Source of the DNA: Vulcanimicrobiota bacterium
Lineage (GTDB): Bacteria > Vulcanimicrobiota > Vulcanimicrobiia > Vulcanimicrobiales > Vulcanimicrobiaceae
Direction: 5' to 3'
Length of the DNA: 64,000 nucleotides
NCBI GenBank assembly: GCA_963759245.1
Contig: CAVWYN010000003.1
Coordinates: 896,672-960,671, forward strand
This document shows, piece after piece, positions 30,451 through 51,947 of the stretch. Every line of letters begins with the position of its first letter. The stretch's first letter is position 1. The translations under genes and the position numbers were made by a program. The notes beneath the pieces were generated by a model. It was not told where the DNA came from, searched no databases, and was given only the letters and a program-made list of their open reading frames with translations.

Positions 30451-30630
30451 AGGACGAGTTCTCCTCAAAAAGGGTTGAAAAAACTGCGATGTTCTCGGCA
30501 AAGCAGAGCGTGCGCTTCCTGGGTTGGGGCTCTTGCCACCATTCGATGCCGTCAGCGTGCTGTTATCATTGTCTGCGTTCGGAGAGAAGAAATCCAGGTA
30601 CACCCGTGCAAATATCCGTGCAAATCCATA

Positions 30631-33159
30631 ATGGAAGCTGCAGCTCGACCACACTTCGGGGCACTGCTGAGGCAGTTTCGGCTCGATGCCGGAATGACGC
30701 AGCAAGAGTTAGCTGAGCGGGCGAATCTGAGCGTCGAGGCCATCAGCCTACTGGAGCGCGGCGCCCGGACGCGGCCTCAACGGGAGACGGTGGTCTTACT
30801 GGGACGCGCGCTCGACCTGTCGCCTAAGCGGAAGGCGCTCCTGGTAAACGCCATCGGAATCGCGCACCCATCCCGCCAACGCGCGAACAGTGAGGCATTG
30901 AGTGCATCGCTGCTGCAACTCGTGCGTCCCGACACGATAGCGACCGCGAGGAATAATCTCCCACAGCAATTGACGTCATTCGTGGGGCGGCAGCGCGAGC
31001 TCGGAGAGATCGAAGCGCTCCTTCGCGAGCACCGGCTAGTCACCGTCGTGGGTTCCGGCGGAGTCGGCAAGACACGGGTTGCGGTGCAGCTGGGAAGCAG
31101 CTTGCTCAATGGTTTCCCGGACGGTGTGTGGCTGGCAGACCTTGCGCCACTTGCGGACGCAACGCTAACGGGAAGCGTAGTCTTGACCGCCCTGCAACTT
31201 GCGTCCGGCACTGGATCAGCGTTAGACGTTATCGTCGCGAACCTCAAGGCCCGACGACCGCTGCTGATCCTGAACAACTGCGAGCACGTGATCGTTCAGG
31301 CGCGTGACGTCGCGGCCCGCATCGTCGAGTCGTGCCCATACGTGCGCGTCTTGTCGACCAGCCGGGAAGCGCTGGGGGTCGCCGGCGAGCGCGTCTATCG
31401 CTTGCCGTCGCTTGCGGCTCCCCCCGATTCGCGCGGGAGTGCGCGAGACACTTTGCCGTATGACGCAGTCGAGCTCTTCGTGGATCGCGCGCTTGCGGTT
31501 AACGCCTACTTCGCTTTGAGCGACGACAACGCGCCGGATGTTGCCGAGATATGCCGCCGGCTGGACGGCATCCCGCTCGCAATCGAGCTCGCCGCCGCGC
31601 GCGTGAACGTACTCGCGCCTCGCCAGATCGCTCGGCGCCTCGACCAACGCTTCCATCTTCTCACCGGCGGGGACTCAAGAGCCTTGCCGAGGCACCAGAC
31701 GATGACCGCTCTCATGGACTGGAGCTACGACCTGCTGACGGCGCGCGAACAAAGGTTCTTCGAGTCGCTTTCGATCTTTGCCGGCGGCTGTACGATCGAC
31801 GCTGCGACGACAGCCTGCGCCGCCGAGGGGGAAGGCGAAATCCAAATAGTCGACCTCGTCGCGTCGCTCGCGACGAAGTCGCTGCTGGTAGCCGAGTTAA
31901 CCGGTAACGAGGAGCGCTATCGCCTCTTAGAATCATCGCGGCAATACGCGCGGGAGAAGCTGGCGGCGCGCGGTGAGCTGGACAGCGTCGCGCGGCGCCA
32001 TGCGCTCGTCTACGTAGAGTTAGCCGAGCAGCTCGAACGCGCGTGGGGAACGACGCCCGATCGTGCGTGGCTTCCACAAGCGCAAGTGGAGTTAGAGAAC
32101 TGGCGCGCCGCCTTGGAGTGGGCGCTCGGGAAACGTGGCGACGTCGTCTTGGGGCAACGTCTGGCCGCTGCCCGAACGGTGCGGCGTACCTTCACGCTTG
32201 CCGAGGGACGACGCTGGGTGCGAGCTTCACTTGAATTGGTCGATCGGCTCACGCCGCCAGCTCTGGTGGCGCGGCTCGAACAGGCTGAGGCGGATGCCGC
32301 TGGGGAGCTCGGTGAACACCAGGTTGCATTGGCCGCGGCCGAGCGGGCTCTGGCACGGTATCGCCAGCTGGGTGACATATTGGGCAGCGCTCAGGCGCAA
32401 GACTCGGCAGCGGGCTCGCTCGTGCTTTTGGGGAGACCCGCGGAGGCGGAGCCGATGCTGCGCGAAGCCTTGGAGGCGGCGCGCACCCTGGGCGATCGCC
32501 GGTTAACCGCCAGGGCCTTACAGAAAATCGGTTGGATCGAGTCCGCTGCCGGTGATTTCGCCGGGGCTCGCGTCCACCTTACCAAGGCGCTCGCGATGGC
32601 GCAGGTACTCGGGACCGAGTCTTTCGCCGCGTCCGTAGCCGTAAGTCTTGCAGACAACGAGTTTCGCGCCGGCGACTGTGAAGCGGCGCTGCGACTCACG
32701 GCGGATTTGGTCGCGAACTCCAGCTCGCTGAGCGCGTCGCCAATCATCGCCGTTGCGCTCGTCAACATGGCAGCGTATCTCATCGCGTTAGGTCGATACG
32801 ACGAGGCGCGAGTGAACGCAACCGATGCACTCGAGCGCGCTCGGGCGCTCCGGGTGGTCGTGTTAGTGGATCTGTCGCTACTACATCTTGCCCTGGTAGC
32901 CGTTCTGAAGCCGGACATCGAACGCCGAAGATCGTCGACGAAATACGTGGCAGCGGCTCGGCTATTCGGATTCGTCGACGCTCACCTTGCCACGATGGGA
33001 GGGATCGGCTACTCCGGCTTGCAGCGCGAATACGATCGCGCGCTCGCCGTGCTGCACGACGCGATCGACGCGGGGGATCTCGTGCATCTGATGGCCGCCG
33101 GCGCGATCATGATCGAAGACGAGGCAATCGACCAAGCGCACGCGATCGATCGAATGTGA
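30631..33159 (+). CDS. STAND-class regulator: XRE-type HTH + NB-ARC-like P-loop NTPase + TPR
   Basis: HTH LRQFRLDAGMTQQELAERANLSVEAISLLERG, P-loop VVGSGGVGKTRVA, Walker-B-like LLILNNCEH, then a long TPR-like C-terminus. ATG at 30631. Confidence 0.8.
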   Translation: MEAAARPHFGALLRQFRLDAGMTQQELAERANLSVEAISLLERGARTRPQRETVVLLGRALDLSPKRKALLVNAIGIAHPSRQRANSEALSASLLQLVRPDTIATARNNLPQQLTSFVGRQRELGEIEALLREHRLVTVVGSGGVGKTRVAVQLGSSLLNGFPDGVWLADLAPLADATLTGSVVLTALQLASGTGSALDVIVANLKARRPLLILNNCEHVIVQARDVAARIVESCPYVRVLSTSREALGVAGERVYRLPSLAAPPDSRGSARDTLPYDAVELFVDRALAVNAYFALSDDNAPDVAEICRRLDGIPLAIELAAARVNVLAPRQIARRLDQRFHLLTGGDSRALPRHQTMTALMDWSYDLLTAREQRFFESLSIFAGGCTIDAATTACAAEGEGEIQIVDLVASLATKSLLVAELTGNEERYRLLESSRQYAREKLAARGELDSVARRHALVYVELAEQLERAWGTTPDRAWLPQAQVELENWRAALEWALGKRGDVVLGQRLAAARTVRRTFTLAEGRRWVRASLELVDRLTPPALVARLEQAEADAAGELGEHQVALAAAERALARYRQLGDILGSAQAQDSAAGSLVLLGRPAEAEPMLREALEAARTLGDRRLTARALQKIGWIESAAGDFAGARVHLTKALAMAQVLGTESFAASVAVSLADNEFRAGDCEAALRLTADLVANSSSLSASPIIAVALVNMAAYLIALGRYDEARVNATDALERARALRVVVLVDLSLLHLALVAVLKPDIERRRSSTKYVAAARLFGFVDAHLATMGGIGYSGLQREYDRALAVLHDAIDAGDLVHLMAAGAIMIEDEAIDQAHAIDRM

Positions 33160-33812: not shown

Positions 33813-33896
33813 GGCGGTTCTCCTATAGGAGGCATGGAGCGAAACACAGAACGCCTGAAAACCGAAACACAGACTCTCGTTGTGGAGGTGCTGGGC

Positions 33897-34889
33897 GTGA
33901 AGGTTTCTCTCGTTGCATCATTCGCAGTCGTTGTATTGGCCGGATGCGGCAATGGCGTCGCGACGCAATCGCCGAGCGCAGTTACAAATATGAGCGCCCA
34001 CGGGACGCCGTCGCGTTCGTGGATGGACCCAACGGCCAAGGCAGAGAATCTTGTGTATCTCTCCACGTTCCCATTCCAGGGACGCCCCGACATCGAGGTC
34101 TTCTCCTGGGGGAAGCGCGAGTTGGTTGGAACCCTGACGGGGTTCGTCGCCCCGCAATACTTGTGCTCCGACAAAGCGGGAGACGTTTTTATTCCCGACG
34201 GCGGCACGTCGCAGATCTTTGAGTATGCGCACGGCGGCACGAGCCCCATCGCCACCTTACACGACACCGGCCATACGCCGCGCGCATGCTCCGCCGACGG
34301 GGTTACGGGGGACCTTGCCGTCGTCGACTCTGGGTCCGGCACCGGTGATGTCGCGATTTATCGAAATGCCTCGGGCAACCCGACGCGGCACATTAACACT
34401 CACTTCACAACATACGAATTCTGCGGCTACGACGATGCGGGCAACCTGTTTGTCGATGGAACGAACCATTTGGAGCACTTTCTATTCGCCGAAATCCCTA
34501 AAGGCAGCAGGTTCTTGACGGTTATCGACCTGGGTGGACACGTCCTAAAACCCAGCGCGGTCCAGTGGGATGGGAAATATATGGCGGTCGGCGACGAGGT
34601 GGGCAACATGGTGTACGAATTTACAATAGCCGGATCGACCGGCACGCTTCAAGGTAGAACCGATCTCGAACGCGGGGAGGGCCCGATTCGCCAATTCTGG
34701 ATACCGAAGTTCGGGAACGGTAAAGTGAATCCACAAGGTACGCATATCGTTGCGACACAGTACAACTTTTCTCGATTCGACGCCGGCGACTTTGGTTTTT
34801 GGGACTATCCAGCCGGGGGCGGGCCCAGGCATTTGATCGTGGGCCCGGACCACCCAGACGGCGTGACCGTCAGCATAGCCACGAAATAG
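33897..34889 (+). CDS. beta-propeller-like lipoprotein, subfamily A
   Basis: GTG 33897 with GGAGG upstream. Lipobox VLAGCGNG. IFEYAHGGTSPIATL and QWDGKYMAVGD are colinear with the paralogs. Confidence 0.65.
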   Translation: MKVSLVASFAVVVLAGCGNGVATQSPSAVTNMSAHGTPSRSWMDPTAKAENLVYLSTFPFQGRPDIEVFSWGKRELVGTLTGFVAPQYLCSDKAGDVFIPDGGTSQIFEYAHGGTSPIATLHDTGHTPRACSADGVTGDLAVVDSGSGTGDVAIYRNASGNPTRHINTHFTTYEFCGYDDAGNLFVDGTNHLEHFLFAEIPKGSRFLTVIDLGGHVLKPSAVQWDGKYMAVGDEVGNMVYEFTIAGSTGTLQGRTDLERGEGPIRQFWIPKFGNGKVNPQGTHIVATQYNFSRFDAGDFGFWDYPAGGGPRHLIVGPDHPDGVTVSIATK

Positions 34890-37583: not shown

Positions 37584-38054
37584 TTAAGCTATACAGGCGC
37601 GTTTTCGAGTGGCCGCTCCACCATTCCCACTAAACGCATAGCTAACTTTGGGTGCGAACCGCCGCGGTCCCGTCGCATCATCTAGGCATTCAACGACGCG
37701 AACGACGTCTTCCATCTTTAGCAGATCGAAGAGCTTTCGGACGAGCGGTTGACCGAGGATCACGGTTTCACGGTCGAACCCTTTGTCGAGGCGACGCCCG
37801 TGCATTCTTAACATCTCGGTTATGCACGTAGCGTCTAGGTAGCTTACGTCGCTAAAGTCAATGATGACGTCCGGCTCCCTGCAAAGGCCCTCGAGTTCCG
37901 CAGACCATTGCCGCTTGCACGTTACGTCGTATTCTCCAGAAAAGACCATTAGGGCCGGTCGCGACTTCAAGGGTTCTCCGTTCGGACCTGTGGGAGTGAG
38001 CGTTACCTCGGTCCGGTTTCTCGCAGGTTTAGGCCTCTTTAGTGTAGCGCGCAC
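37584..38054 (-). CDS. STAS-domain protein (anti-sigma-antagonist fold)
   Basis: ALMVFSGEYDVTCKRQWSAELEGL...VIIDFSDVSYLDATCITEMLRM pattern. Its stop directly abuts the desaturase start. True start uncertain. Confidence 0.55.
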   Translation of the reverse strand: MRATLKRPKPARNRTEVTLTPTGPNGEPLKSRPALMVFSGEYDVTCKRQWSAELEGLCREPDVIIDFSDVSYLDATCITEMLRMHGRRLDKGFDRETVILGQPLVRKLFDLLKMEDVVRVVECLDDATGPRRFAPKVSYAFSGNGGAATRKRACIA

Positions 38055-38067
38055 CAGACGGAGGGCG

Positions 38068-39132
38068 CTATCCTGAAAACTGCCCCGTGCCCGCCGCGTT
38101 CTCCCACCCCAGCACGCGAGCGATCAGCTCGGTGCGGTTCCGGGTTTCGGTCTTGTCGACCATGCTCCTAACGTGATGCTGAACGGTCGAAGAGGCGATG
38201 TGCAGCTTTTGGCCGATCGCCTCGAGCCTCTCCCCATCGAGCAGCATCGCCAGCACCTGCAGCTCACGCGGGGAGATATGGAAGCGGGCGGCCGGGCCGC
38301 TCAAAGATTTCGGCGGCTTAAAGCGATCGATACGAACGCCGATGAAGAGTCCCGCCGGGCCCGACATCGGCTGCGTCCGGACGACTAAGAACGGGACGGG
38401 ATGCGCTATGCCCGCCGTTTGCGTGCCGGAGTCACCCTGCCAGTCGGCGATCAGGCCCCGGACGGCTTCTTCGAGCACTCCGGGCAGACGGTCGGCTATC
38501 CTGGTCCGCAGCCCGGTAAGCGCGACGCGGCGTTGCTGTTCGTCCGTCCACGCGAGCACGATCTGAAGGTCGCGGTCCAGCACGTAGAACGATTCGCCCG
38601 AAGCCTCCAACGCTTCGGTATCCCGTGCCGCATCGGCCGGCCGATCGTCGACGTCGGGGCGAGCGTGTCCGGCGCTGGGGGAGTCTAGACGCAGCGCGGA
38701 GAGGCGCTCCGAGGTCCCGTCGAGGGCCAACGCCAGGACGCTGATCTCGCTCGAGGTGAACGGTCCCAGCTCGCTCGTGCGCAGGAGGGTGAGGATCCCG
38801 AAGCTGGCGGTGGAATCGGCGAATAACAGCGTGATTCCGCTTTCGAAATCGCCGAGGGGACCGAGTGTCGCAGCGATGCGAGGGCCCTTCTTGGTTTTCT
38901 CGCGTTGGCGGTCGAACTCGACCTTGAGCCGCGACAGCTCGCCTCCGTTTGCCTGGTGGTCGAGCAAGAGACCGGCTAGTTCCCCGTCGGGCATCAGACG
39001 CGCAAACGACCAAAGCGAGGCTGGCACTACGCGAAGGATCGCGTTGATGATGGGATACGCCGGATCCGACTCCGGCACGACGTCGGCCACGAGTTTCAAT
39101 TCAGGCCGGCCGGCGGTATCGGACTTTTTCAC
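38068..39132 (-). CDS. LuxR-family transcriptional regulator with non-receiver N-terminal sensor region
   Basis: C-terminal HTH ISPRELQVLAMLLDGERLEAIGQKLHIASSTVQHHVRSMVDK. About 280 N-terminal aa with no receiver motifs. GTG start. Confidence 0.8.
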   Translation of the reverse strand: MKKSDTAGRPELKLVADVVPESDPAYPIINAILRVVPASLWSFARLMPDGELAGLLLDHQANGGELSRLKVEFDRQREKTKKGPRIAATLGPLGDFESGITLLFADSTASFGILTLLRTSELGPFTSSEISVLALALDGTSERLSALRLDSPSAGHARPDVDDRPADAARDTEALEASGESFYVLDRDLQIVLAWTDEQQRRVALTGLRTRIADRLPGVLEEAVRGLIADWQGDSGTQTAGIAHPVPFLVVRTQPMSGPAGLFIGVRIDRFKPPKSLSGPAARFHISPRELQVLAMLLDGERLEAIGQKLHIASSTVQHHVRSMVDKTETRNRTELIARVLGWENAAGTGQFSG

Positions 39133-39225
39133 GATGGTCAGTTTCTCGCCACGATGGTAAGCTTAGGGACGCTTCTTCCTCTCCGCGGCGACGCACTGCC
39201 TCGTCCGCCCGAAAGCGTAATAATT

Positions 39226-39615
39226 ATGGCCCGCGTATGCTGCTTGGCCGCAATCGACCCCAAGCATATCCCGTTGTTGGGCGCCGCGCTCATCGGCGCC
39301 GGCGAGCCGGGCCTCACGATCGTCGCCCATCTCGATGTCGCCGCGTTAGGCAGACTCTCGCCGGACGTTCTCATCGCCGATATCGATCGACTAGACGTAG
39401 ACCCGCTCGAAATGTTGCGGCAGCTGCGTTTCGTCTTACCGGAATGCGTCATAGTGGTCTACAGCGGTTCCGTAAAGCGCTCTTGGAGCCGCGCATGTCA
39501 TCTCGCGGGCGCCAGCTGCGTGCTCTCCAAAGAGTCACGTGAGTCACAACTCGTATTCGGCTTGCAACACGCGATGCAGAGCGGCTGCTTTACCGACCCG
39601 CGCTTTGCCGCGTAA
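39226..39615 (+). CDS. stand-alone receiver (REC)-like protein
   Basis: CheY-like pattern: DVLIADID (acceptor Asp), VIVVYSG (Ser/Thr position), CVLSK (Lys). The N-terminal acidic pair is reduced to a single Asp. ATG at 39226. Confidence 0.55.
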   Translation: MARVCCLAAIDPKHIPLLGAALIGAGEPGLTIVAHLDVAALGRLSPDVLIADIDRLDVDPLEMLRQLRFVLPECVIVVYSGSVKRSWSRACHLAGASCVLSKESRESQLVFGLQHAMQSGCFTDPRFAA

Positions 39616-40644: not shown

Positions 40645-40980
40645 ATGCCGATACAACGGTGCTGCCCGCCCGCGACCGTCGTGGACGAAGACTTTTCCGA
40701 TGCAGCGCTGCTGCTCAAGGCACTGGCTGACCCACACCGCCTGGCGATCATGGCGACGCTCGCAGCCTCCGAGGACGAGGTTTGCGTCTGCGATTTCACC
40801 GACGGCTTGCCGCTGAATCAGCCGACCGTCTCGCATCATCTTCGCATCTTGCGCGAGGCGGAGCTGGTCACATGCGAGCGCCGCGGGACGTGGGTTTACT
40901 ATCGTCTCGCACGGGGTGCGGCGGGCAGAGCGCGCGATGCCTTGGCCTGCGCATTTCAGCGGCGGAAGGCAGCGGCATGA
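40645..40980 (+). CDS. arsR: ArsR/SmtB-family metalloregulator
   Basis: ALADPHRLAIMATL, CVCDF metalloid-site motif, and the NQPTVSHHLRILREAELV recognition helix. Confidence 0.85.
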   Translation: MPIQRCCPPATVVDEDFSDAALLLKALADPHRLAIMATLAASEDEVCVCDFTDGLPLNQPTVSHHLRILREAELVTCERRGTWVYYRLARGAAGRARDALACAFQRRKAAA

Positions 40981-41414
40981 AGACGCATCTGAGCTTTCCC
41001 ACCACCGACCTTGCCAAAAGCGTGCGGTTCTACGCGACGCTGCTCGATGAAACGCCGGCGAAGCAATTCGATGACTATGCGCTTTTCATTGCCGAACGGC
41101 CCGGTCTCGAACTCGCGCTCGGGGTCGCGCAATTCGTTTCGCCCACACCGGACACTCACTACGGAATCGTGGTTGAGTCGGCTGCGGCGGTGGAGACCGC
41201 CATCGAGCGGTTTGAACGAGCGGGATTGGCGTCGTCGATCGAGCGCGATGAGACCTGCTGCTATGCGAGGCAGACGAAGGTTTGGGCGGTCGATCCCGAC
41301 GGTCGCCAGTGGGAAGTCTATACCGTTCACGAGGATACGGATGAGCGCGGTGTTTCCGACCCAACCTGTTGTGCCGAGGATAGCGGCGCGTGTTGCGCCC
41401 AAGCGCCAACGTGA
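40977..41414 (+). CDS. arsI: ArsI/CadI-family VOC metalloenzyme (C-As lyase-like)
   Basis: TCCYARQTKVWAVDPDGRQWEVYTV with the vicinal Cys pair, DYALFIAERPGLELAL, and a C-terminal PTCC..ACC tail. ATGA overlap with arsR. Confidence 0.7.
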   Translation: MKTHLSFPTTDLAKSVRFYATLLDETPAKQFDDYALFIAERPGLELALGVAQFVSPTPDTHYGIVVESAAAVETAIERFERAGLASSIERDETCCYARQTKVWAVDPDGRQWEVYTVHEDTDERGVSDPTCCAEDSGACCAQAPT

Positions 41415-42085
41415 CGCTTCTCCGGCGGTGCGTCGCGGAAGGGTTGGGCTCGGCATTTTTGTTAGCGGCGGTCGTAGGGTCGGGCATCATGGCGCAGCGC
41501 CTCTCCGGAGGGAACGTTGCCATCGCGCTTCTCGCGAATACGCTCGCAACGGCCGGCGTATTAGTCTGCCTTATCGCGGCCTTAGGTCCGATCTCCGGCG
41601 CGCACTTCAACCCGGCTGTTTCGCTGGCCGACGCCCTCGGCGGCGGTCTGCGGTGGCGCGAGCTGCCGGCTTACGTGGGCTCACAACTCGCCGGTGCGGT
41701 CGTCGGCGTCGCAACCGCAGACTCGATGTTCGGCCTGGCGCCATTCTCGCTCGCTACTCGCGTCAGAAGCGGCCCGGGGCAGTGGCTTGGTGAATTCGTC
41801 GCAGCCTTTGGTCTGATGATCGTGATTTGGGGTTGCGTTCGATTTCGGTCGCGACTCCTTCCGTTTGCCGTTGGAGCCTACATTGGGGCGGCGTATTGGT
41901 TTACTTCCTCTACGTCGTTCGCGAATCCAGCGGTGACGATCGCGCGGTCGTTGTCGGACACATTTACGGGAATCCGCCCCGCCGACGTCGCGCCATTCGT
42001 CGCCGCGCAACTCGCCGGAGCCGTCGGCGCCACGGGATTATTCCTGTGGCTCCTCCCTCACGACGGAGAAACCGGTGCCGCGTAA
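41411..42085 (+). CDS. MIP-family channel (aquaglyceroporin, AqpS-like arsenite channel)
   Basis: Two NPA boxes (HFNPAVSLA and ANPAVTIAR). GTGA overlap with the arsI stop. Alternative GTG start at 41390. Confidence 0.8.
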   Translation: MTLLRRCVAEGLGSAFLLAAVVGSGIMAQRLSGGNVAIALLANTLATAGVLVCLIAALGPISGAHFNPAVSLADALGGGLRWRELPAYVGSQLAGAVVGVATADSMFGLAPFSLATRVRSGPGQWLGEFVAAFGLMIVIWGCVRFRSRLLPFAVGAYIGAAYWFTSSTSFANPAVTIARSLSDTFTGIRPADVAPFVAAQLAGAVGATGLFLWLLPHDGETGAA

Positions 42086-42473
42086 GCCGTTCGTGCTCTT
42101 TGTCTGTCGCCACAATACCGGCCGAAGCCAGATGGCAGAAGCGTATCTCCGCTATTTCGCCGGTGACGCCGTTGACGTAGCGTCGGCGGGCACCGAGCCG
42201 GCCGACGCGCCCGATCCTGGAGTCGTGAGCGCTATGGCCGAAGACGGCATCGATATTTCGACGGCGCGCCCTAAGCTACTGAATCCGGGAATGATCGGCC
42301 GTGCGACCCGCATCATTACGATGGGTTGCGACGTTGATGGTGTTCTACGCGTCGACGAAGATTGGGGATTACCGGATCCGAAGGGACAGCCGCTCGAACG
42401 AGTAGGTTCGATACGCGACCTGATTAAAGCAAAAGCGCTGGCGGTCGCAGCGGACTTAAGAAAAACTTCCTGA
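42075..42473 (+). CDS. arsC: arsenate reductase, LMW-PTPase type
   Basis: VLFVCRHNTGRSQMAEA (CX5R P-loop). 132 aa. Overlaps the channel gene by 11 nt. Confidence 0.85.
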   Translation: MPRKPFVLFVCRHNTGRSQMAEAYLRYFAGDAVDVASAGTEPADAPDPGVVSAMAEDGIDISTARPKLLNPGMIGRATRIITMGCDVDGVLRVDEDWGLPDPKGQPLERVGSIRDLIKAKALAVAADLRKTS

Positions 42474-42579: not shown

Positions 42580-43548
42580 ATGAGAGTGATCGTCGCCTTA
42601 ATGCGAAGCACGCTTTGTGCCGTCGCGTGTGTTGCTTTTATGGCCGGTTGCGGCGGATCACGATCTTCGATAGTGCCGCCCGAAACATTTCAGGCCAACG
42701 GGATCGACTCTCGCGCCGGACACGACCAACGTTCGGCGCCCCTGCATGACAACGGGCGCAGTCTTCTTTACGTCGCCGCTGGCTCGGTCGAGGTTTACAC
42801 TTATCCTCGCGGCAAACAGCTCGGTTCGCTCGGATGGGGAGGCTATCTCTGCTCGGACCGGTTCGGGAATATCATCGTCGCTGGGGCCGAAGGCATAAGC
42901 TACGTCTGGGTCTTTCCGCATGGAGGCAGCAACCCAATTGCGACCCTGTACAACCCAGAGAGTCCTGGCGGCTGCTCCGTAGAGCAGAGCAGCGAAAACA
43001 TAGCCGTCGCCAGTGCAGATTCGGGTGCCGTGGTCGTCTTTCCGTATAATCCCAAGCGTGGCTGGAGGCTAGCCCACGACTACCACGATCCGAACATGCG
43101 TGGAGGCCAGTATTGTACCTACGATCCCCTTGGCGACATTTTTGTCGACGGGTATGACACAAGCGCCTCATTCATGCTCGCAGAGTTGCCCAAAGGGAGT
43201 TCGACGTTTACTACGATCACTCTGGATCAGGTCGTACACAGACCCGGTTCCATGCAGTGGTATGGCAAGTATCTAGCGATCGAGGACGCGGGCGAGACGG
43301 GCTCAGTCCCGGCCAAGATTTACCGACTTGCAATAAATGGAAGCTCGGGGCATAGGGTGAGTGTCACAATTCTGAAGGACTCGGTCGCAAATGGCCAATT
43401 TTTGATATACAACCGCACCGTCATTGGTCCGATGAAGTATAATTCCGTATACGGACTTGGCTTCTGGCGCTTTCCGAGCGGCGGCACACCATTCAGGACC
43501 ATTTCCACGTATACAATCCCAGGTGGGGAGGCCCTCAGCCTTAAGTAA
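42580..43548 (+). CDS. beta-propeller-like lipoprotein, subfamily A
   Basis: Lipobox FMAGCGGS. VEVYTYPRGK, VWVFPHGGSNPIATL and QWYGKYLAIED are colinear with the paralogs. Confidence 0.65.
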   Translation: MRVIVALMRSTLCAVACVAFMAGCGGSRSSIVPPETFQANGIDSRAGHDQRSAPLHDNGRSLLYVAAGSVEVYTYPRGKQLGSLGWGGYLCSDRFGNIIVAGAEGISYVWVFPHGGSNPIATLYNPESPGGCSVEQSSENIAVASADSGAVVVFPYNPKRGWRLAHDYHDPNMRGGQYCTYDPLGDIFVDGYDTSASFMLAELPKGSSTFTTITLDQVVHRPGSMQWYGKYLAIEDAGETGSVPAKIYRLAINGSSGHRVSVTILKDSVANGQFLIYNRTVIGPMKYNSVYGLGFWRFPSGGTPFRTISTYTIPGGEALSLK

Positions 43549-44391: not shown

Positions 44392-44742
44392 TTAGCAGAG
44401 AGACTCGACGAGCGTGTGGGCCAGGTTGGCATTTCCATACCATCCGACGCTCCACAGGCTGTTGGAGATCGTGGTGATACTTTGCAGTTGGTCGAAGCGC
44501 TTTGAGGGATTGGGGCTGTGCACGACGCTCCAACGCTTGCCATCCCACCGCTCGATGAGCGTTCGATAGATTTCTGCGGATGGAACGATATAGTATCCGA
44601 TCGCCCAAACGTTGCCGCCACCCGCAGCGACATCGAAGAGGTCGTTTCCGCCGGAGCCGACGTTTTGGGTTGTAACGACTCGCCAGCTGGTACCGTCCCA
44701 GTGTTCCGCTAGCGTGTGTAGGGTAGGGGCGCCTCCGATCAA
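44392..44742 (-). pseudogene. 5'-truncated remnant of a WDG-repeat secreted-protein gene
   Basis: Repeated EHWDGTSWRVV / ERWDGKRWSVV units start mid-repeat. An in-frame stop lies 4 codons upstream, with no signal peptide and no continuation in other frames. Confidence 0.5.
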
Positions 44743-44920
44743 AGAATACGGCTACGTTAAAATCGTAAAGAATCGCTGAAGCAAGAACGGTCTTCAGCGC
44801 ATCGGAGCGCACTTTGGCACCAAACGCGACACTAGGTGGTCTTTTTCTCGACGGGAGATACTCCATTGCCCGCGATTCTAAGTCGTCAGAAGGGCATGCC
44901 GCCGCCGCACGGCCAAAACA

Positions 44921-45922
44921 TTGAGTAACGTGATCCGCAGATCGACCTTTTTGTCAGTACTTGAAGGCGGGACCCTCGGCGCGGTTGTGAGCGCCGGCCC
45001 GCGGAGCGCCGGTCTGGGCGCTCTAGTTGAGCGCTCTTTGGCGAATCTACCCAAACCAAACGGCGCGGCAGTCGTTGTGGACAAGAGCGGCAAACGCCAT
45101 ACGTACATTCGAGTCAACTCTGGTGACGTGTTTCTTGCGGGCAGCGCGTTCAAGATTTTCGTTCTTACGGAGTTCCTTCGAACGGTCGAGCGCGGCCGCG
45201 TGTCACTCGGGCAACTATTGTCAATCGACGAATCCGTCCTCGTGCCCGGCTCTCCGGCGCTGTTCCCCGACGGTAAGAATATTACGCTACGCGGTCAAAT
45301 TCCGGCACGGATCGCCGCCCAGCTCATGATTGACTACAGCGACAACACGGCGACGGACATGATGTTGAAGTTAGTTGGCCCGAGCAACGTACGTTCGCTG
45401 ATCCGAGAGGCTGGACTTTCGACGGTCAAAATTCCGGATAGCATAAAACGCTTCTTTGCGTATTCGAGTGGCTATCCGGCCGATTTCGATCCGCCCCTGA
45501 CGCTGTTCACGGAAGGGAAAGAGGTTCCGGGAATCGTCCAGGGTCCGCCTCGTGACACGCTCAACGACGTCGAGACCACGTGCGGATCACTTGACGACTA
45601 TCTAACGTTTTACCGGCAGGCGGACACGGGCTCGTTCTTCCGCGAGTCGACAACGTTAAACCTATGGCGCTCGCTGTCGCTCAGTTCACTCAACGGGCGA
45701 ATCGTACCGCTCGGTTCCGTCGCGTACACGAAGGGCGGCAGCGTCGATGGCAACGGCGCGACGAGCGCCCTGCTCGCCGCGGGCAGGATGTACACTGGTC
45801 CGGAGCACGTTGCTACCTACGCCATCGCGACAAACTGGCGTACGAAGCAACCGGTCAGCGAGATCGAACCGACCTTCGTCAAGGTTTGCGCAGCGATCTT
45901 GAGCGCCGCGTCGTTAACCTAA
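44921..45922 (+). CDS. class-A beta-lactamase-related serine hydrolase
   Basis: SAFK (SxxK), YSDN (SDN) and TKGGS (KTG-like) motifs in the canonical order. Non-ATG start. Confidence 0.65.
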   Translation: MSNVIRRSTFLSVLEGGTLGAVVSAGPRSAGLGALVERSLANLPKPNGAAVVVDKSGKRHTYIRVNSGDVFLAGSAFKIFVLTEFLRTVERGRVSLGQLLSIDESVLVPGSPALFPDGKNITLRGQIPARIAAQLMIDYSDNTATDMMLKLVGPSNVRSLIREAGLSTVKIPDSIKRFFAYSSGYPADFDPPLTLFTEGKEVPGIVQGPPRDTLNDVETTCGSLDDYLTFYRQADTGSFFRESTTLNLWRSLSLSSLNGRIVPLGSVAYTKGGSVDGNGATSALLAAGRMYTGPEHVATYAIATNWRTKQPVSEIEPTFVKVCAAILSAASLT

Positions 45923-45939: not shown

Positions 45940-47451
45940 CTACGACGCCTTCGTTCCTTCCCGGTAGCGGCGGATCTCCCCGGCCGCGCCATGCAAGCGC
46001 AGGAGTTCCTCGGCATTCCTCTTGAGCGTGAGGGCCGCTTTTGAGTCGCCGCTTTTTACCCGAATTTCGGCCATGAGGGCAAGAGCAGATGCGCGCGTCC
46101 GATTGTTGCCAAGCCGGCGCGACAAGCTCTCCACCTCCGCTGCGAGGTCCAACGCATCGGTAAAGCGGCCGAGCCTAAAGCACGCCGCGGATTGTGCGAG
46201 AATCGCGCGTGTCATCGCCTCAGAGCTCGAAGGAACGGAAGCACGCGCCTTAGTTGCGTATTGCATCGCCGACGCGGGTTTCTCATTTGCCGCGCAGAAA
46301 AGTGCTGCTTCGAGGGAGAGATACGGCACTTGCAAGGTTTTTGCAAGCGCGGCGAGTTCGCGAGCAAGTGGCAGACGCTCTACGGGATTCAAAATGGTTT
46401 TCACCCAGGCTCGCTCGATGGCAAACCGCACGACCTGATAGTTGAAGCCAAGCCGTTGCGCGGCGGCGTAGGCTTGCTCGATCAACGCCAGCGCGCTTTC
46501 GAAGCGACCACTGAAGCTTTCCGTTCCGGATTCGATCGAGGCCAGGTCAAACGTCGCTTCGCAAATCGCGTCGTTCGACCCGGCGGCGTATTTGCACGAG
46601 CGCACGTGCTCAAGCGCGCCGGCAACGTCACCGAGGTGGAGCGCTAGCTCGGCCTGGCGTATCGAGAGTGCCCGCAAAAGCTCGGAACGGCGCGCGTCCG
46701 GCGGAGCCTGGAGACGCGAGAGTGCCAGCGTTCCGCGCGCGAGCTCCAGATGCGCTCGCTGGTAGTCCGAAAGCAAAAAATAACATCGACTTCGCGCGAG
46801 GCTCACCCGCGCCGATGCGATCTCGCGATCGTCAACAGTTGGAAGAAGAGCCGCCTCCGCGGATGCTTGGGTGCAACGGTCCGCCGCATCCCCAAATTCG
46901 AGCCTCTGCATCGCACAATCCGCAAACAGCACGAGCGCTTTGGAACGCGTGTCACCCGGCGGAAGCGCCGCGCACAGATCTGCGAGAAGTAGGTCGGCCG
47001 ACTGCAACTTGCCGGCCTCGAACGCGAGATACGCCTCGTTGAGCGCGAGCTGGCCTCGACTGGGTCGCACGATGACGGTGTCCGCCACAGGCGCCGGCCC
47101 ACACTCCAGCGACGCGCAAAGCTCGTCGCAGAGGATTCTTCGTTCGCGAAAGAATTGCCGTCGAGAAATGGAGAGCGCGACAGTCAGCGAAGACCAGTGC
47201 TCCCCGCGAAGAATGTGCCGGTCAAAAATCTCACGGAGTCGAAGTGCGCGCTCGCCTTTCGAAGCAGGCTGCCGGGAGCAAATGACGTCGACCAGGCGGC
47301 TCAGCCGATCGTGCAAAGCGCGCACGAGCAACGGTTGCGGCAGGGCTGCCGCGGCCTCGCCGAGCGCAAGCCATGTTAACGGATGTTTGCGTAGGGATCG
47401 TCCGTCGCGCAGATGGCGAAAAAAGAGTCGAGACGTCGGTTCTCGTTTCAC
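45940..47451 (-). CDS. putative regulator: sigma-70 region-4-like HTH + helical-repeat domain (paralog 1)
   Basis: Full-length colinear with 49329-50843 (MKREPTSRLFFRHLRDG.. vs MKPEPISLRFFRHLREG..; LSISRRQFFRERRILCDEL vs LYISRREFFRIRELLCNEL). The GTG start overlaps the S41 stop (GTGA). Confidence 0.55.
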   Translation of the reverse strand: MKREPTSRLFFRHLRDGRSLRKHPLTWLALGEAAAALPQPLLVRALHDRLSRLVDVICSRQPASKGERALRLREIFDRHILRGEHWSSLTVALSISRRQFFRERRILCDELCASLECGPAPVADTVIVRPSRGQLALNEAYLAFEAGKLQSADLLLADLCAALPPGDTRSKALVLFADCAMQRLEFGDAADRCTQASAEAALLPTVDDREIASARVSLARSRCYFLLSDYQRAHLELARGTLALSRLQAPPDARRSELLRALSIRQAELALHLGDVAGALEHVRSCKYAAGSNDAICEATFDLASIESGTESFSGRFESALALIEQAYAAAQRLGFNYQVVRFAIERAWVKTILNPVERLPLARELAALAKTLQVPYLSLEAALFCAANEKPASAMQYATKARASVPSSSEAMTRAILAQSAACFRLGRFTDALDLAAEVESLSRRLGNNRTRASALALMAEIRVKSGDSKAALTLKRNAEELLRLHGAAGEIRRYREGTKAS

Positions 47452-49121
47452 CGATGAGGAGGACTCTGGCCCGACGCGCCTAGCCGCGTGAGGGCGTCGC
47501 GACTGCTTTGGAGTGCCGGATCGAGCTCAAGCGCACGGCGGTAGCTCTCGATCGCCGCCGTGCGATTGCCAGCGTCCGCGTAGGCCTCGCCGAGACTGTC
47601 GGCTGCGTTTGCCGAACCCTGGTTCGCCTCGGCGTTCACGGTAAACACGGCGATTGCTTCGCTGAGTCGCCGATTTGAGATCAGCGCGTAGCCAAGGTTG
47701 TTCAGTTTGCGTTCCATTTGAGTGAACTGATAGCGGTGTAGTGGATTCGACGCGTAGGCGCGATACGCCGCAAGGCCGCCGGCTGGTCCGCCGGCTGCAA
47801 CTCCCTTGAGCACGGAGTCTCCCAGCGATTCCCCCGGGCGATAGGCCAAGATGACGTCGAGCGCGGGGTCGCGACCGGCGACGTAATCGGCGAATGTCGG
47901 ATCGGCTGCGAGTTCGGGATCCGTCTCGATCCGTTTGTCGCGCGGGTCCATGTCTTGCCACCAGACCGAGGCCATGAAGACGCGCAGATGGCTGTTAGGA
48001 AGCTCGATCGGCGTTGGATCGCCGTAGGAGTTCACGTGCTGGCCCGTCGGCTGACCCACGAAAATCGCATTCGTGTAGTTTTCCAGCCGATTAACGAGGT
48101 TTTGTGCCGCAGAATACGTGTTCCGGCTGGTTAGGACGAAGAGGTGTCCGAGGCGATCGATCGACTGCATTCGAACCAAGCCGACGATTATGGGTGTGAT
48201 TAGATGGTTGTCGCCGCCGTCGTTCGTGCGAATATCCAGAACGAGCTTATCGACCCGCAGTCTCGATGCTTTTTGGAAAGCGTCGCTAAAAAATTGTTCG
48301 ACCGTTTCGTCTTTGGCATCTTCGACTTCATTGAACTGAATGTAGAAGAGGCGCTGCTCGGGCAGATATGTTGACCAAAAGGTGCGGTCGGGATGGGTCA
48401 GCCACAGCGGAGCGGGACCGGCACCGCGCGCGTCGAGCCAACCCGCAATGGGAGCATGGCCGAAGAGCGTTTGCATCGTCACCTGCGGCGTAACGGTGAA
48501 TCGGCGCATTGCAGTGCCTTTTGCGACTGTGAACGTGGCGCTGTCCGACGTCGGCTCGACCCCGAGTCCGTGCAAGACTCGGCCCGACGTCATGAGCAGC
48601 GGGCCAATCACCTCGAGCAATCCTGGATTGCCAGCGTCATGCGGCATCACAGCGAGGAGCTGCGTGTAAATGGCGTTCGCGTCAGTGCTGCCGATGCTGA
48701 CGAGACGGCCGCCCACTGCGTCGGCATACTTGGGCGCGGCACTTTCGACGTAAAGGCCATCGTCGTAATGGCGCAGGCGCAAGGGGAAGTAACTATCTTG
48801 CGGGAGACCGCGCGGACCGGTGTGGCTATCCACCGGCATGGCGGCTATCTCAAAAAGCCGCAGCGCGATCTGATCGTCGTTGAGCGTCGGAATGTCGGCG
48901 TTGAGCTGGTTTACTGCCTGACGGAACGTGTCGGGCGTCATCGTGTGAAAGAGGTCTTTGTGCTTTAGCGGCATCTCGTGCGCAAGAAACTGCAAGTCGG
49001 CTCGCCACTGATCGACCGTAAGCGGGACCGGTGCACGATCGCTCTGGGCGTATGTCGTGGCCGTGCCGAGCCCGAACGCGGCGAGCGCAGATGCGACGGC
49101 CAGAACAACAATCGTTCTCAT
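47448..49121 (-). CDS. peptidase S41-like protein with C-terminal TPR repeats, secreted
   Basis: Signal peptide, LVLDIRTNDGGD and TSRNTYSAAQ motifs in S41 order, and a C-terminal TPR (AIESYRRALELDP). Confidence 0.65.
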   Translation of the reverse strand: MRTIVVLAVASALAAFGLGTATTYAQSDRAPVPLTVDQWRADLQFLAHEMPLKHKDLFHTMTPDTFRQAVNQLNADIPTLNDDQIALRLFEIAAMPVDSHTGPRGLPQDSYFPLRLRHYDDGLYVESAAPKYADAVGGRLVSIGSTDANAIYTQLLAVMPHDAGNPGLLEVIGPLLMTSGRVLHGLGVEPTSDSATFTVAKGTAMRRFTVTPQVTMQTLFGHAPIAGWLDARGAGPAPLWLTHPDRTFWSTYLPEQRLFYIQFNEVEDAKDETVEQFFSDAFQKASRLRVDKLVLDIRTNDGGDNHLITPIIVGLVRMQSIDRLGHLFVLTSRNTYSAAQNLVNRLENYTNAIFVGQPTGQHVNSYGDPTPIELPNSHLRVFMASVWWQDMDPRDKRIETDPELAADPTFADYVAGRDPALDVILAYRPGESLGDSVLKGVAAGGPAGGLAAYRAYASNPLHRYQFTQMERKLNNLGYALISNRRLSEAIAVFTVNAEANQGSANAADSLGEAYADAGNRTAAIESYRRALELDPALQSSRDALTRLGASGQSPPHR

Positions 49122-49211
49122 GCCTTACCCCTGAGGCTTTGGCAGAGAGCCTCACCGGCTCTACGGGCTCGCGACTGCGGTTGTTTCGACGCTCATGGCT
49201 CCGCACCGTAT

Positions 49212-49252
49212 TTGGCACGAATCGAGTCACTGAGTGCCGTGGTTCGTGCCAA
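49212..49252. promoter_or_regulatory. 10-bp perfect inverted repeat in the divergent intergenic region
   Basis: ttggcacgaa (49212-49221) and ttcgtgccaa (49243-49252), separated by 21 nt. Lies between the S41 gene and regulator paralog 2. No T-run follows. Confidence 0.4.
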
Positions 49253-49328
49253 GTCTGGAGCATCCGGGGCACCAGAGCGAGGGCCTTTCGGCCTCCCTGC
49301 GAGTAACTGATTAGTAGGGAACGATACC

Positions 49329-50843
49329 GTGAAACCCGAGCCGATCAGTCTACGCTTCTTCCGCCATCTCCGAGAAGGGCAACTTCTTCGAGAGAATCCT
49401 CTAACGTGGCTTGCGGTCGGCGAGGCTGCCAGAACGTTGCCGCCGCCGCTGCTCGTCCGTGCAGTGCACGATCGCCTCAGCGACCTCGTCGCCCAAATAT
49501 GCACCGCTCCCGCGTACGTTTCGAGACCGGAACGAGCGCGTCGACTTCAAGAGATCTTTCGCAGGAACGTTCTCGGAGGCGAGCACTGGTCGATACTGAG
49601 CGCCGACCTCTATATTTCGCGGCGTGAATTCTTCCGCATACGCGAGCTGCTGTGTAACGAGCTTTGCAAGTTGCTCCAACTCGGGCCGCAATCGCCCGCG
49701 AGCGCCGCTATCATGCAACCAAGTCGCGAACGGCTCGCATACAACGAAGCCTATATGGCGCTTGAGGCGGGTAATATTGAGTCGGCAGAACGGATTCTAG
49801 AGACCCTTTGCGCGGGTAGGCCGTCCGGCGACATGCACTCCGAAGCCTTGCTGCTTGCGGCGGACTGCGCCATGGAGCGCCTCCGCTTCGATGCCGCCGC
49901 GGCCCTGTGTTCGCTCGCATTCGAGGCGGCCCGGATCGTCACAGACTGCGACGACCGCGCGATCGCGTCGGCTCGCGTGAGCGTAGCGAGGAGTCGCTAC
50001 TACATGCTAGTGTCAGACTATCGCCGTGCCGATATGGAGATCGACGCTGCGTTGAGCGGCTTGTCACGCCTGTCATGTGCGCCGGATCCGCGACGTTGCG
50101 AACTCATGAAGGTGATTTTGGCACGGCAGGCCGAGTTAGCGATCCACGTCGGCGACTTTAACCGCGCCCTGGAGCAGGTGCACCGAGCTAAGTACACCAC
50201 CGGTACGAACGACACCGTTTCCGCGGCCTCTTTTGACCTTGCCGTATCCGAGGCCGCCACCGAGACCTTCGCCGGACACTTTCAAAACGCGATGCTGTTG
50301 CTGGAGGAAGCGCTCGCGCGCGCCGAGCGGTTATGCTTCAATCGTCAGATCGCAAGACTCTCAATCGAGCACGCGTGGGTCGAATGCAGTGCTGACAGTC
50401 GTCGTGGGTTGTTGCTAGCCCCAAGAGTCGCCGCCGTCGCAGAGGCCGTGCGTGTGCCGGCGCTGACCCTGGAAGCCTCGCTCTTTTGTGCGGTGAACGA
50501 GCGGCCGAAGGTGGCGATCGCGTACGCATCACGAGCGCGTTATGCCAGCCCTCCGAGTTCCCTATCCGCGGCTCGCGCAACTGCCGCCCTTGCAGTGGCC
50601 TGCTACGAGCTGGGGCGTCTTGCCGACGCGCTCGACCTCGCTCGGGAGGTCGAAAAGTTATCGGAAGCGCTCGACAATAATCGCATACGCGCCTGTTCGC
50701 TGGCACTCATGGCGAGGGTCGAGCTTAAGGCACGCAATCGAAGAAGCGCGAAAGCTCTGAAGGACGACGCGGAAGAGCTCCTACGCCGATACGCTGCCCT
50801 TTCTGAGCGCAACACGTTCGCGCACTGGACACAGTCCTCCTAA
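49329..50843 (+). CDS. putative regulator: sigma-70 region-4-like HTH + helical-repeat domain (paralog 2)
   Basis: See 45940-47451. Followed 93 nt downstream by a propeller lipoprotein gene. Confidence 0.55.
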   Translation: MKPEPISLRFFRHLREGQLLRENPLTWLAVGEAARTLPPPLLVRAVHDRLSDLVAQICTAPAYVSRPERARRLQEIFRRNVLGGEHWSILSADLYISRREFFRIRELLCNELCKLLQLGPQSPASAAIMQPSRERLAYNEAYMALEAGNIESAERILETLCAGRPSGDMHSEALLLAADCAMERLRFDAAAALCSLAFEAARIVTDCDDRAIASARVSVARSRYYMLVSDYRRADMEIDAALSGLSRLSCAPDPRRCELMKVILARQAELAIHVGDFNRALEQVHRAKYTTGTNDTVSAASFDLAVSEAATETFAGHFQNAMLLLEEALARAERLCFNRQIARLSIEHAWVECSADSRRGLLLAPRVAAVAEAVRVPALTLEASLFCAVNERPKVAIAYASRARYASPPSSLSAARATAALAVACYELGRLADALDLAREVEKLSEALDNNRIRACSLALMARVELKARNRRSAKALKDDAEELLRRYAALSERNTFAHWTQSS

Positions 50844-50936
50844 ACCCAAGAGTGCCGAACTTCGTGCCGAGTCCGAAGCGCCTGTACGGCGTATCCGCCC
50901 CTAGCTGATATCGTTATGGCGCTGGAGGATCTGAGG

Positions 50937-51947
50937 ATGCGTTCAAATTTCTTCGTCGCCGCGTTACGCTTGACGCTCGTGAGTTGCGCCCTTGCCGCTT
51001 GCACCTACGCGGGTTCGGGCAGCCCCGTGCCGGCAAACACGCGCCCTCTCACGCAGATCCCCGCCACCTTGCAAGCCTTCGTCGGCTCGGGGCACGGCGT
51101 GGGGCTGAACCTGGTCGATGCGGCAAAGATAAAACCCCAACTCTACGTCAGCCAGTTCGCGACGACGGCAGTGAACGACTACTCCGCTCACAACAGGGGC
51201 GACGCTGCACCATTCTGTCAAATTGTCGGAACGAACTTCGTCAACTCGCTTGGCGTCGACAGCTCAGGCACCGTTTGGATCCCGCAGGGTAACCCGATTA
51301 AAATCACGTCAAACGGAGCGAACTGCGGTCCCGCGGGTACGACCTTATCCGATCCGAACGGCCAGCCGGTCGCCATCGCCTTCGATTCCAAAGGCACACG
51401 CTACGTCGCCGACATCCAAAACAACTCGAGCGGCCCCGGAGACATCTCCGTCTATCCCGCGGGATCCACGTCGCCGACGCGGACGCTCACGGGCAACTAT
51501 GTTTTTGCCGTCTTAGGCGTTGGCGTAGACTCAAAAGATAACGTTTACATGTCGTTCATCGATAGAAAGAACCGCGGCAACGTGATCGAGTTTGCGCACG
51601 GACAGATGCCCGGCAAGAATCTGACCGAAGTCCGGACCGGAACTACTCCGGGAAGTATCACCTTCGACCGTCATGACAACCTGATCATCCAAGATCAGGG
51701 GACTCGCATGACCGAGATCTACGCGCCGCCGTATACCGGTAAACACCGGAAGATCGCCCTGAAAGGCTACACCGTGCAATGCAGCCTCAACAAAAGAGAA
51801 ACCGCTCTGGCGTGCGCCGACTACGAGAATTCGACGGTCGATGTGTTCAGATACCCGTCGGGCAAGTATCTTTACAGCTTCAACAACGGCATCTCTGTCA
51901 GCGGGGAGCTGATTGGTCTTGCCTTCGATCCCGCCGCTCCGAATTGA
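50937..51947 (+). CDS. beta-propeller-like lipoprotein, subfamily B
   Basis: ATG 50937 with GGAGG upstream. Lipobox ALAACT. Blade-like units (GDISVYPAGSTSPTRTL, NVIEFAHGQMPG, TEIYAPPYTG, VDVFRYPSGK). Confidence 0.65.
   Translation: MRSNFFVAALRLTLVSCALAACTYAGSGSPVPANTRPLTQIPATLQAFVGSGHGVGLNLVDAAKIKPQLYVSQFATTAVNDYSAHNRGDAAPFCQIVGTNFVNSLGVDSSGTVWIPQGNPIKITSNGANCGPAGTTLSDPNGQPVAIAFDSKGTRYVADIQNNSSGPGDISVYPAGSTSPTRTLTGNYVFAVLGVGVDSKDNVYMSFIDRKNRGNVIEFAHGQMPGKNLTEVRTGTTPGSITFDRHDNLIIQDQGTRMTEIYAPPYTGKHRKIALKGYTVQCSLNKRETALACADYENSTVDVFRYPSGKYLYSFNNGISVSGELIGLAFDPAAPN

Follow-up and report, generated by a model that had tools for sequence, protein, structure and literature searches.

The genomic window studied here is a stretch of 64,000 nucleotides (nt) from a Vulcanimicrobiota bacterium (contig CAVWYN010000003.1, positions 896,672 to 960,671; all coordinates below count from its first letter). 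It contains three related genes for predicted DNA-binding regulators, in which an N-terminal helical domain (N-domain) ending in a predicted helix–turn–helix (HTH) is followed by a long array of hairpins resembling tetratricopeptide repeats (TPRs). These regulators and the peptidase gene that overlaps one of them are arranged as follows:

27004–28608 (corrected start), minus strand: regulator copy 3, 534 amino acids; recognition helix ISLREFYRERR
45940–47451, minus strand: regulator copy 1, 503 amino acids; recognition helix ISRRQFFRERR
47104–47451, minus strand: N-domain of copy 1 (residues 1–116, HTH at residues 86–116), followed in the protein by a TPR solenoid (residues 132–499, predicted fold)
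47448–49121, minus strand: secreted peptidase of family S41 with a TPR tail at its C-terminus (Pfam), 557 amino acids; its stop codon overlaps the start of copy 1
49329–50843, plus strand: regulator copy 2, 504 amino acids, GTG start; recognition helix ISRREFFRIRE

Copies 1 and 2 are paralogs over their whole length (53% identity; BLAST, E 2e-165), and their open reading frames are those given in a preliminary description of this DNA. Copy 3, which the same description listed as a third, more diverged copy starting at 28680, shares the N-domain and the architecture, but that start is wrong and the similarity is not full-length: BLAST aligns it with copy 1 over 154 amino acids at 29% identity (E 6e-7), covering only the N-domain and the first repeats. 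A profile of the N-domain matches copies 1, 2, and 3 and no other protein in the window. Because of its common length and architecture and this profile match, copy 3 is, by sequence criteria, a family member and not a full-length paralog. Its start lies at 28608, as its database twin and ten close homologs all begin with MSHLLRNL and are 531–534 amino acids long. The public version of copy 1 (P0001, 382 amino acids) begins 121 codons too late and lacks the HTH domain; the long form is correct, because every homolog conserves this upstream segment. Neither a signal peptide nor a membrane segment was found on reading the sequences of the regulators. The proposed GTGA coupling of copy 1 to the S41 gene is real in the sequence, where the S41 stop codon and the copy-1 start overlap by 4 nt, and copies 2 and 3 are indeed directly followed by genes for NHL-type beta-propeller proteins with lipoboxes.

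Domain architecture of the regulators

AlphaFold models, which were built with family alignments, reached a predicted local distance difference test score (pLDDT) of 88 for the whole protein and of 89 for the N-domain alone. In the model, residues 6–116 form eight helices, residues 117–131 a disordered linker, and the remainder 22 helices, which extend to the C-terminus and pair as about 11 TPR-like hairpins. The last three helices of the N-domain constitute the HTH, with the ISRRQFFRERR segment as its final helix, and about 40 amino acids of short helices precede this part, which resembles region 4 of sigma factors. All three copies are confidently modelled as a helical domain of about 115 amino acids that ends in a sigma-region-4-like HTH, followed by TPR-like hairpins; the anatomy of an HTH domain with TPR-like repeats, as read earlier from the letters alone, is borne out in this predicted fold.

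In Foldseek comparisons of the N-domain with the PDB, the best superpositions were obtained on SigD (3vfz, 3vep), sigmaE on −35 DNA (2h27), SigA (6onu), and SigL (3hug), with target-normalised TM-scores of 0.57–0.78 and root-mean-square deviations (rmsd) of mostly 2.4–3.5 Å (up to 5.5 Å for some SigL chains) over 60–80 columns. Taken by themselves, the N-domains of copies 1 and 2 had no match in Pfam or NCBIfam even at E ≤ 10, and the N-domain profile found nothing meaningful among PDB sequences (best E 0.064, an oxidoreductase), in line with the initial impression of a regulator family that lacks a curated description. Among relatives, one copy-3-type protein matches Sigma70_r4_2 on exactly the HTH segment (E 3e-4; 20.7 bits, below the cut-off of 25.7), and 65 distant members include 22 with HTH_23, six with Sigma70_r4_2 (E ≤ 0.01, below cut-off), and 16 with TPR_MalT (PF17874). 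The latter model is also matched by the relative P0011, and the TPR part of copies 1–3 shows weak matches only, to TPR_12 or NCBIfam MalT (residues 351–485 of copy 1).

Pfam and NCBIfam scans of copies 1–3 and the 65 distant members found no sigma region 2, kinase, or receiver, as had been stated before, and no XRE-type HTH (HTH_3, HTH_31, HTH_19). An HTH of the LuxR/GerE type was not matched either, and the TPR array continues to the C-terminal end. STAND NTPase domains (NB-ARC/AAA_16) are absent from copies 1–3 and present in two of the 65 distant members. When the full-length model was compared with the PDB by Foldseek, generic TPR proteins scored as well as or better than Rap proteins, for which the TM-score to the target was 0.70 in one case (4gyo, rmsd 5.3 Å) and 0.49 in another (Phi3T Rap, 8rst). 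Across the family, the N-domain is better conserved than the TPR part, and the most conserved stretch is the arginine-rich recognition helix, in which S-R-R-x-F-x-R-x-R is invariant or nearly so.

Family size and taxonomic distribution

At the 50% identity level, an exhaustive search with the N-domain profile recovered 539 clusters with E ≤ 1e-3, of which 113 had E ≤ 1e-10; in the best 150 of the 539 clusters, nearly all proteins are 500–560 amino acids long and carry the domain at their N-terminus. The close relatives retrieved by word-based searches number only about 45, each of which derives from a soil metagenome or from a metagenome-assembled genome of Eremiobacterota, and named relatives belong to Candidatus Cybelea and Tumulicola (Eremiobacterota/Vulcanimicrobiota). 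A narrow-pattern scan of GTDB genomes yielded 25 loci, comprising 23 from Eremiobacterota, one from Verrucomicrobiia, and one from Binatus, to which a metagenome scan added three. The N-domain also exists as a stand-alone protein of 160–170 amino acids (loci L022 and L028), and in P0061 (845 amino acids) and P0067 (865 amino acids) an AAA_16/NB-ARC STAND NTPase is inserted between the N-domain and the TPR part. Source annotations refer to family members as 'tetratricopeptide repeat protein' or hypothetical, and we found no description of the family in the literature, including papers on RRNPP receptors and on Eremiobacterota. Judged from these searches, the N-domain represents an undescribed family of predicted DNA-binding domains that occurs almost only in Eremiobacterota.

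Two direct-repeat motifs accompany the regulators

Two types of short direct repeats, motif A (GTGMC-N4-TTMGTGCC) and motif B (GGTCA-N4-TTGGTCA), are found next to the regulator genes. Their sites in the window are:

26981–26996, minus strand: motif B site GGTCATCACTTGGTCA, between the copy-3 stop codon and the next propeller gene
44816–44832, minus strand: degenerate motif A site GTGTCGCGTTTGGTGCC with two mismatches; the gene remnant 44392–44742 lies 74 nt downstream
49214–49230, minus strand: motif A site GTGACTCGATTCGTGCC, facing the S41/copy-1 operon, whose first ATG (S41) lies 93 nt downstream
49234–49250, plus strand: motif A site GTGCCGTGGTTCGTGCC, facing copy 2, whose GTG start lies 79 nt downstream
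50852–50868, plus strand: motif A site GTGCCGAACTTCGTGCC, beginning 9 nt after the copy-2 reading frame and ending 48 nt before the ATG of the propeller gene

When the flanks of copy 2 were aligned with the orthologous L002 locus, conserved islands appeared upstream of the regulator and in the regulator–propeller spacer, both of which read GAGTGCC-N4-TTCGTGCC-RAG within otherwise diverged spacers. The site at 49234–49250 is the best-conserved island in the L002 spacer alignment, and the site at 50852–50868 is kept as well. Exact matches to motif A number three in the window versus 0.01 expected from shuffles; all are intergenic and point at a downstream gene, with those at 49214–49230 and 49234–49250 standing back to back. 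Elsewhere, motif A recurs in L001–L008, L017, L035, L036, and L037, where copy-1/2-type regulators have it at the stop codon or upstream. It abuts the regulator stop codon in L001, L003, L004, L036, L037, L006–L008, L017, and the locus of a distant member, L035, with L006–L008, L017, and L035 carrying the variant TTAGTGCC; in L002 it stands ahead of the regulator, in L005 it is directed at a divergent gene, and in L029 it is found before an S41 ortholog. The intact L001 homolog of the 404-amino-acid repeat lipoprotein, of which the window retains a remnant, is also preceded by motif A. Two promoter readings of the motif were rejected: a sigma-54 promoter on the opposite strand (GGCACG-N..-GGCAC) would have a GG/GC spacing one base too long and would direct transcription antisense into the regulators, and a −35/−10 reading of the two half-sites would require more than their spacing of 11–12 base pairs (bp).

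Motif B accompanies copy-3-type regulators, which lack motif A. The copy-3 spacers are 86% identical among orthologs, too similar for footprinting, and the motif was found from more distant loci. At up to one mismatch, it has 16 sites in 549 kb, all beside copy-3-type regulators or their propeller genes and in the orientation of the regulator.

The type of motif corresponds to the type of recognition helix. Regulators with the copy-1/2-type helix (S-R-R-Q/E-F-F/Y-R) go with motif A, which 16 of the 22 S-R-R proteins have and none replaces by motif B; those with the copy-3-type helix (S-L-R-E-F-Y-R) go with motif B, present for 12 of the 15 S-L-R proteins, none of which has motif A (Fisher p 3e-8 for the correspondence). 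On this pattern, the second position of the helix, arginine or leucine, is a candidate specificity-determining residue. Both motifs have a fixed orientation and lie 48–125 nt upstream of start codons, and every gene downstream of a site encodes either a signal-peptide/lipobox protein or a regulator. For motif A, the downstream genes comprise propellers, lipoproteins of 166–178 amino acids, a phosphoesterase, a beta-helix protein, a lipoprotein of 421 amino acids, an exported protein of about 1430 amino acids, and the S41 peptidase.

Downstream of motif A and B sites, at a distance of 22–44 nt, another recurrent element is found, TTyCyTCAyrwwTT (such as tcttcacgatttt and tcctcatactttc). It occurs in the window at about 26935–26950 and 44755–44770, both on the minus strand, as well as in L001, L003, L004, L005, and L036, and may be a core-promoter signal of the lipoprotein genes. 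A scan of 44.3–52.6 kb with promoter and terminator consensus sequences was uninformative, returning fewer sites than shuffles.

Propeller lipoproteins and other neighbours of the regulators

The genes next to the motif sites mostly encode lipoproteins, of which the following adjoin the regulators or their sites in the window:

24696–25664, minus strand: NHL-type propeller lipoprotein, 322 amino acids, lipobox LAAC; second gene after copy 3
25682–26905, minus strand: propeller lipoprotein, 407 amino acids from the ATG at 26905, lipobox VSAC; first gene after copy 3
44392–44742, minus strand: truncated remnant, the C-terminal ~110 amino acids of a 404-amino-acid repeat lipoprotein with an intact homolog in L001
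50916–51947, plus strand: NHL-type beta-propeller lipoprotein, 343 amino acids, lipobox LAAC; presumed target of copies 1 and 2

Altogether, seven NHL-type propeller lipoprotein paralogs are present in the window (18898–19947, 24696–25664, 25682–26905, 29395–30447, 33834–34889, 42580–43548, and 50916–51947), with the lipoboxes LAAC, MAGC, LAGC, and VSAC read from the translations after hydrophobic N-termini. For the products of 50916–51947 and 24696–25664, phmmer searches against the PDB identified, at E 1e-6, the sensor domain of PknD (1rwi) and, at E 2e-10 to 8e-15, the Pizza6/7 designs derived from it; Pfam NHL itself remains below threshold on the propeller genes. The suspected link between regulators and propeller lipoproteins is conserved across genomes, with operator-like motifs directly upstream of those genes: 17 of 34 regulators across all loci have a same-strand propeller gene immediately adjacent. 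It lies downstream of the regulator for window copies 2 and 3 and in L002, L006–L008, L016/L018, and L024/L025, the last two of which keep the order of copy 3, 25682–26905, and 24696–25664, and upstream, with gaps of 11–40 nt, in L009, L010, L012, L013, L019, L021, and L026. Over the fetched loci, the propeller density is about one per 10 kb, and the enrichment beside regulators spans at least six distinct orthologous arrangements. Within the window, a site of motif A or B (at most one mismatch) precedes only three of the seven propeller genes or the operons that contain them.

Copy-1 orthologs in other genomes are followed by a lipoprotein of about 175 amino acids (166–178; L004 9624–10142, L036 4219–4731). 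This lipoprotein is found as tandem duplicates in L005 (2940–4024) and, in L003 (3769–3915), as a 48-amino-acid in-frame deletion form, in which only the lipoprotein signal and the last 19 residues, a conserved stretch (RYAQxATGPNFGLKSC), are kept. In the window, the spot at which copy-1 orthologs have the motif and the small lipoprotein gene is occupied by a class-A-like gene of the beta-lactamase family (44921–45922, plus strand; Beta-lactamase2, E 7e-22), which is convergent with copy 1. Since the orthologs are followed by their own motif and lipoprotein gene, the sequence comparison indicates a local rearrangement at copy 1.

Proposed function and alternative explanations

Taken together, we consider it likely that copies 1–3 are cytoplasmic one-component HTH–TPR transcription factors, which control genes for exported lipoproteins via direct-repeat operators. 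The HTH of the N-terminal domain would bind the paired half-sites, 11–12 bp apart, upstream of target promoters, such that two sigma-4-like HTH domains would occupy tandem half-sites, and the C-terminal TPR-like superhelix of about 370 amino acids, which resembles the MalT sensor and Rap-type folds, may bind a ligand or partner and thereby modulate activity. Targets would be mostly NHL-propeller lipoproteins, along with lipoproteins of other kinds and, within this clade, the secreted S41–TPR peptidase. In the window, the predicted motif A regulon would comprise the S41/copy-1 operon, copy 2, the propeller gene 50916–51947, and the decayed lipoprotein gene 44392–44742, and that of copy 3 the propeller pair 25682–26905 and 24696–25664. 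Sites before the transcription units of some regulators would imply autoregulation, which may extend to the S41 operon if copy 1 rides on its transcript. The fixed orientation of the sites and their distance to start codons suggest that they work in activation.

Several observations weigh against this proposal. The Foldseek E-values of the N-domain are not significant (best 1.2), which leaves the pattern of TM-score and rmsd as the basis of the sigma-4 likeness, and no curated HTH model of Pfam or NCBIfam reaches its cut-off on copies 1–3, the matches of relatives on the HTH being sub-threshold. The enrichment of propellers beside regulators is only about 3-fold over the local background, in loci that are propeller-rich in general. 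No site lies within 2.5 kb of six of the 22 S-R-R and three of the 15 S-L-R regulators, and copy 1 lacks a motif site after its stop codon, unlike its orthologs. The cases behind the motif/helix correspondence are non-independent: at 45% identity they collapse to six S-R-R and five S-L-R clusters, of which only three and two have motifs, so that the pattern may reflect one ancestral switch. Finally, neither a transcription start nor a −10 element is assignable at the sites, which makes the choice between activation and repression a guess.

The peptidase next to copy 1 had invited a different reading, a protease-gated regulator, in which the S41 enzyme cleaves or releases the HTH–TPR protein and in this way controls lipoprotein expression. 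The enzyme itself is well defined (Peptidase_S41, 38.2 bits versus a cut-off of 24; TPR_1/TPR_2 at residues 506–536; a cleavable signal peptide read from the sequence), its gene is coupled to copy 1 in this genome by the GTGA overlap, and TPR repeats are present in both proteins. We nevertheless regard gating as highly improbable, as the adjacency is unique to this window: an S41 homolog was found in none of 31 regulator loci of other genomes, including those of the closest copy-1 orthologs (L001, L003, L004, and L036), and an N-domain protein in none of five loci of S41 orthologs (at 78%, 67%, and 66% identity), so that the S41 part of the proposed association is not conserved. The S41–TPR architecture predates the pairing and is widespread, with about 120 homologs (120 carrying PF03572) across several phyla, such as Acidobacteriota, Bacteroidota, and Gemmatimonadota, including some in which one narrow-pattern genome scan recovered no family member. 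In addition, the signal peptide on the peptidase and the lack of any signal or membrane segment on the regulators would place them in different compartments. Motif A stands upstream of the S41 gene here, and likewise of its 78%-identical ortholog in L029, where two tandem motif-A-like sites (5869–5885 and 5904–5920, plus strand) precede the gene and a Vgb_lyase/NHL-like propeller gene follows it in the regulator's place. Because the peptidase gene shares its upstream motif with the other targets, also where no regulator adjoins, it is probably a regulated target that is co-transcribed with copy 1, and not the trigger. A peptide loop like that of RRNPP systems but outside the Firmicutes, in which the regulator drives the lipoproteins and the S41 peptidase, and the latter frees C-terminal peptides that are sensed by the cytoplasmic TPR domain, is hinted at by the L003 deletion form, as it keeps only the signal peptide and the conserved C-terminal residues; we rate such a loop as very unlikely.

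The main competing explanation assigns the motifs to another factor, such as a dedicated extracytoplasmic function (ECF) sigma factor or an unrelated repressor, with the HTH–TPR genes as co-regulated members or passengers. The strict orientation and promoter-proximal position of the motifs would suit such a factor, the motif/helix correspondence could be phylogenetic inertia, and the TTyCyTCAyrwwTT element downstream of many sites shows that other promoter signals are common to them. This explanation is rather unlikely, however, given that the spacing of the half-sites does not fit −35/−10 elements, that the sites abut regulator genes in nearly every locus, including L035 with its different target, that the motif type switches with the regulator clade and never crosses, and that no further regulator gene recurs consistently across these loci. 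Alternatively, the N-domain could be a mimic of sigma region 4 or an adaptor of the RNA polymerase or anti-sigma type, which reads no DNA and is joined to a TPR protein scaffold. This would agree with the generic protein-binding nature of TPR domains and with the sigma-4 domains complexed with anti-sigma factors or WhiB1 among the closest structures (3hug, 3vep, 6onu), but the arginine-rich recognition helix is what the family conserves most, and specific DNA repeats co-occur with the regulator genes, which renders an adaptor improbable to a considerable degree. Extremely unlikely, finally, is that these are generic TPR proteins, as their annotations would have it, with an HTH likeness by chance and a neighbourhood that reflects the abundance of propellers, seven of them in this window alone: the N-domain is confidently folded in the models, better conserved than the TPR part, and found both on its own and fused to STAND NTPases, HTH models match a third of the distant members, and motif A far exceeds its expected frequency.

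Relation to known regulatory systems

If copies 1–3 are one-component transcription factors as proposed, they share features with several characterized systems. Like the RRNPP(A) receptors (Rap, Rgg, NprR, PlcR, and PrgX), they are predicted to be soluble cytoplasmic proteins with an N-terminal HTH and a TPR-superhelix sensor, and they form multi-paralog families with dedicated neighbouring genes; a Rap protein (4gyo) is among the best full-length fold matches. They differ in the HTH, which is of the XRE type in those receptors (and absent in Rap) and sigma-4-like here, in their greater length of 500–560 amino acids, and in their predicted direct-repeat operators. Moreover, no short propeptide gene adjoins the window copies, whose neighbours are the S41 gene, the beta-lactamase-like gene, and the propeller genes of 343 and 407 amino acids. 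Descriptions of RRNPP systems concern Firmicutes and the mobile elements of this phylum (PMC10075063, PMC9765709), whereas the present family is found in Eremiobacterota.

The STAND regulators of the MalT/LAL type are connected to the family by the MalT-like TPR model PF17874 in 16 of the 65 distant members, by the weak NCBIfam match in copy 1, and by the NTPase between the N-domain and TPR part of P0061 and P0067. Copies 1–3 lack this NTPase, and their DNA-binding domain is N-terminal and sigma-4-like, in contrast to the C-terminal LuxR/GerE HTH of MalT.

ECF sigma factors include groups with C-terminal TPR extensions (ECF42), and their region-4-type HTH has a putative counterpart in copies 1–3, suggested by sub-threshold matches and by the superposition on SigD, SigL, and sigmaE. 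The order of domains is reversed in the present proteins, with the HTH first and the TPR part after it, and region 2 is missing; with only about 40 residues before the sigma-4-like part, they would therefore not melt a −10 element or function as sigma factors alone. Activators of the OmpR/PhoB type resemble the proposed regulators in their mode of action only, as they use two direct-repeat half-sites about one helical turn apart in fixed orientation upstream of the promoter; there is no relationship in sequence or fold, the HTH described here is not winged, and a receiver domain is lacking.

Other genes in the window

A further TPR regulator is encoded at 30475–33159 (plus strand), which combines an XRE-type HTH with an AAA_16/STAND NTPase and TPR_12, and which is flanked by the propeller lipoprotein genes 29395–30447 (minus strand) and 33834–34889 (plus strand). 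Regulators with Trans_reg_C and TPR domains and of the GerE/MalT type likewise occur among propeller genes, in the propeller-rich loci L003 and L034. The pairing of propeller lipoproteins with TPR regulators of several DNA-binding types may thus be a general theme in the phylum.

From translations read by eye, the region 40645–42473 (plus strand) looks like an arsenic-resistance cluster, with genes for an ArsR/SmtB-type HTH protein, a glyoxalase-like protein, an MIP/aquaporin with two NPA motifs, and an ArsC of the low-molecular-weight phosphatase type. Read in the same way, the translations of 37584–39615 comprise a protein of 354 amino acids whose C-terminus carries a LuxR-type HTH, an adjacent small STAS-like protein, and a divergent receiver-like protein after these; this group is unrelated to the HTH–TPR regulators.

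Implications for Eremiobacterota

Soils and cold deserts harbour abundant Eremiobacterota, and to our knowledge gene regulation in this phylum is essentially uncharted. The present analysis delimits a large family of predicted transcription factors, with at least 539 clusters at 50% identity, for which there had been no curated model. It corrects the tempting reading of a protease-gated regulator and flags the public start of copy 1 as mis-called. A predicted DNA-binding fold, two predicted operators, a candidate specificity residue, and the outline of a putative regulon of exported NHL-propeller lipoproteins come with this family, which provides an entry point to the function of a heavily expanded family of propeller lipoproteins.

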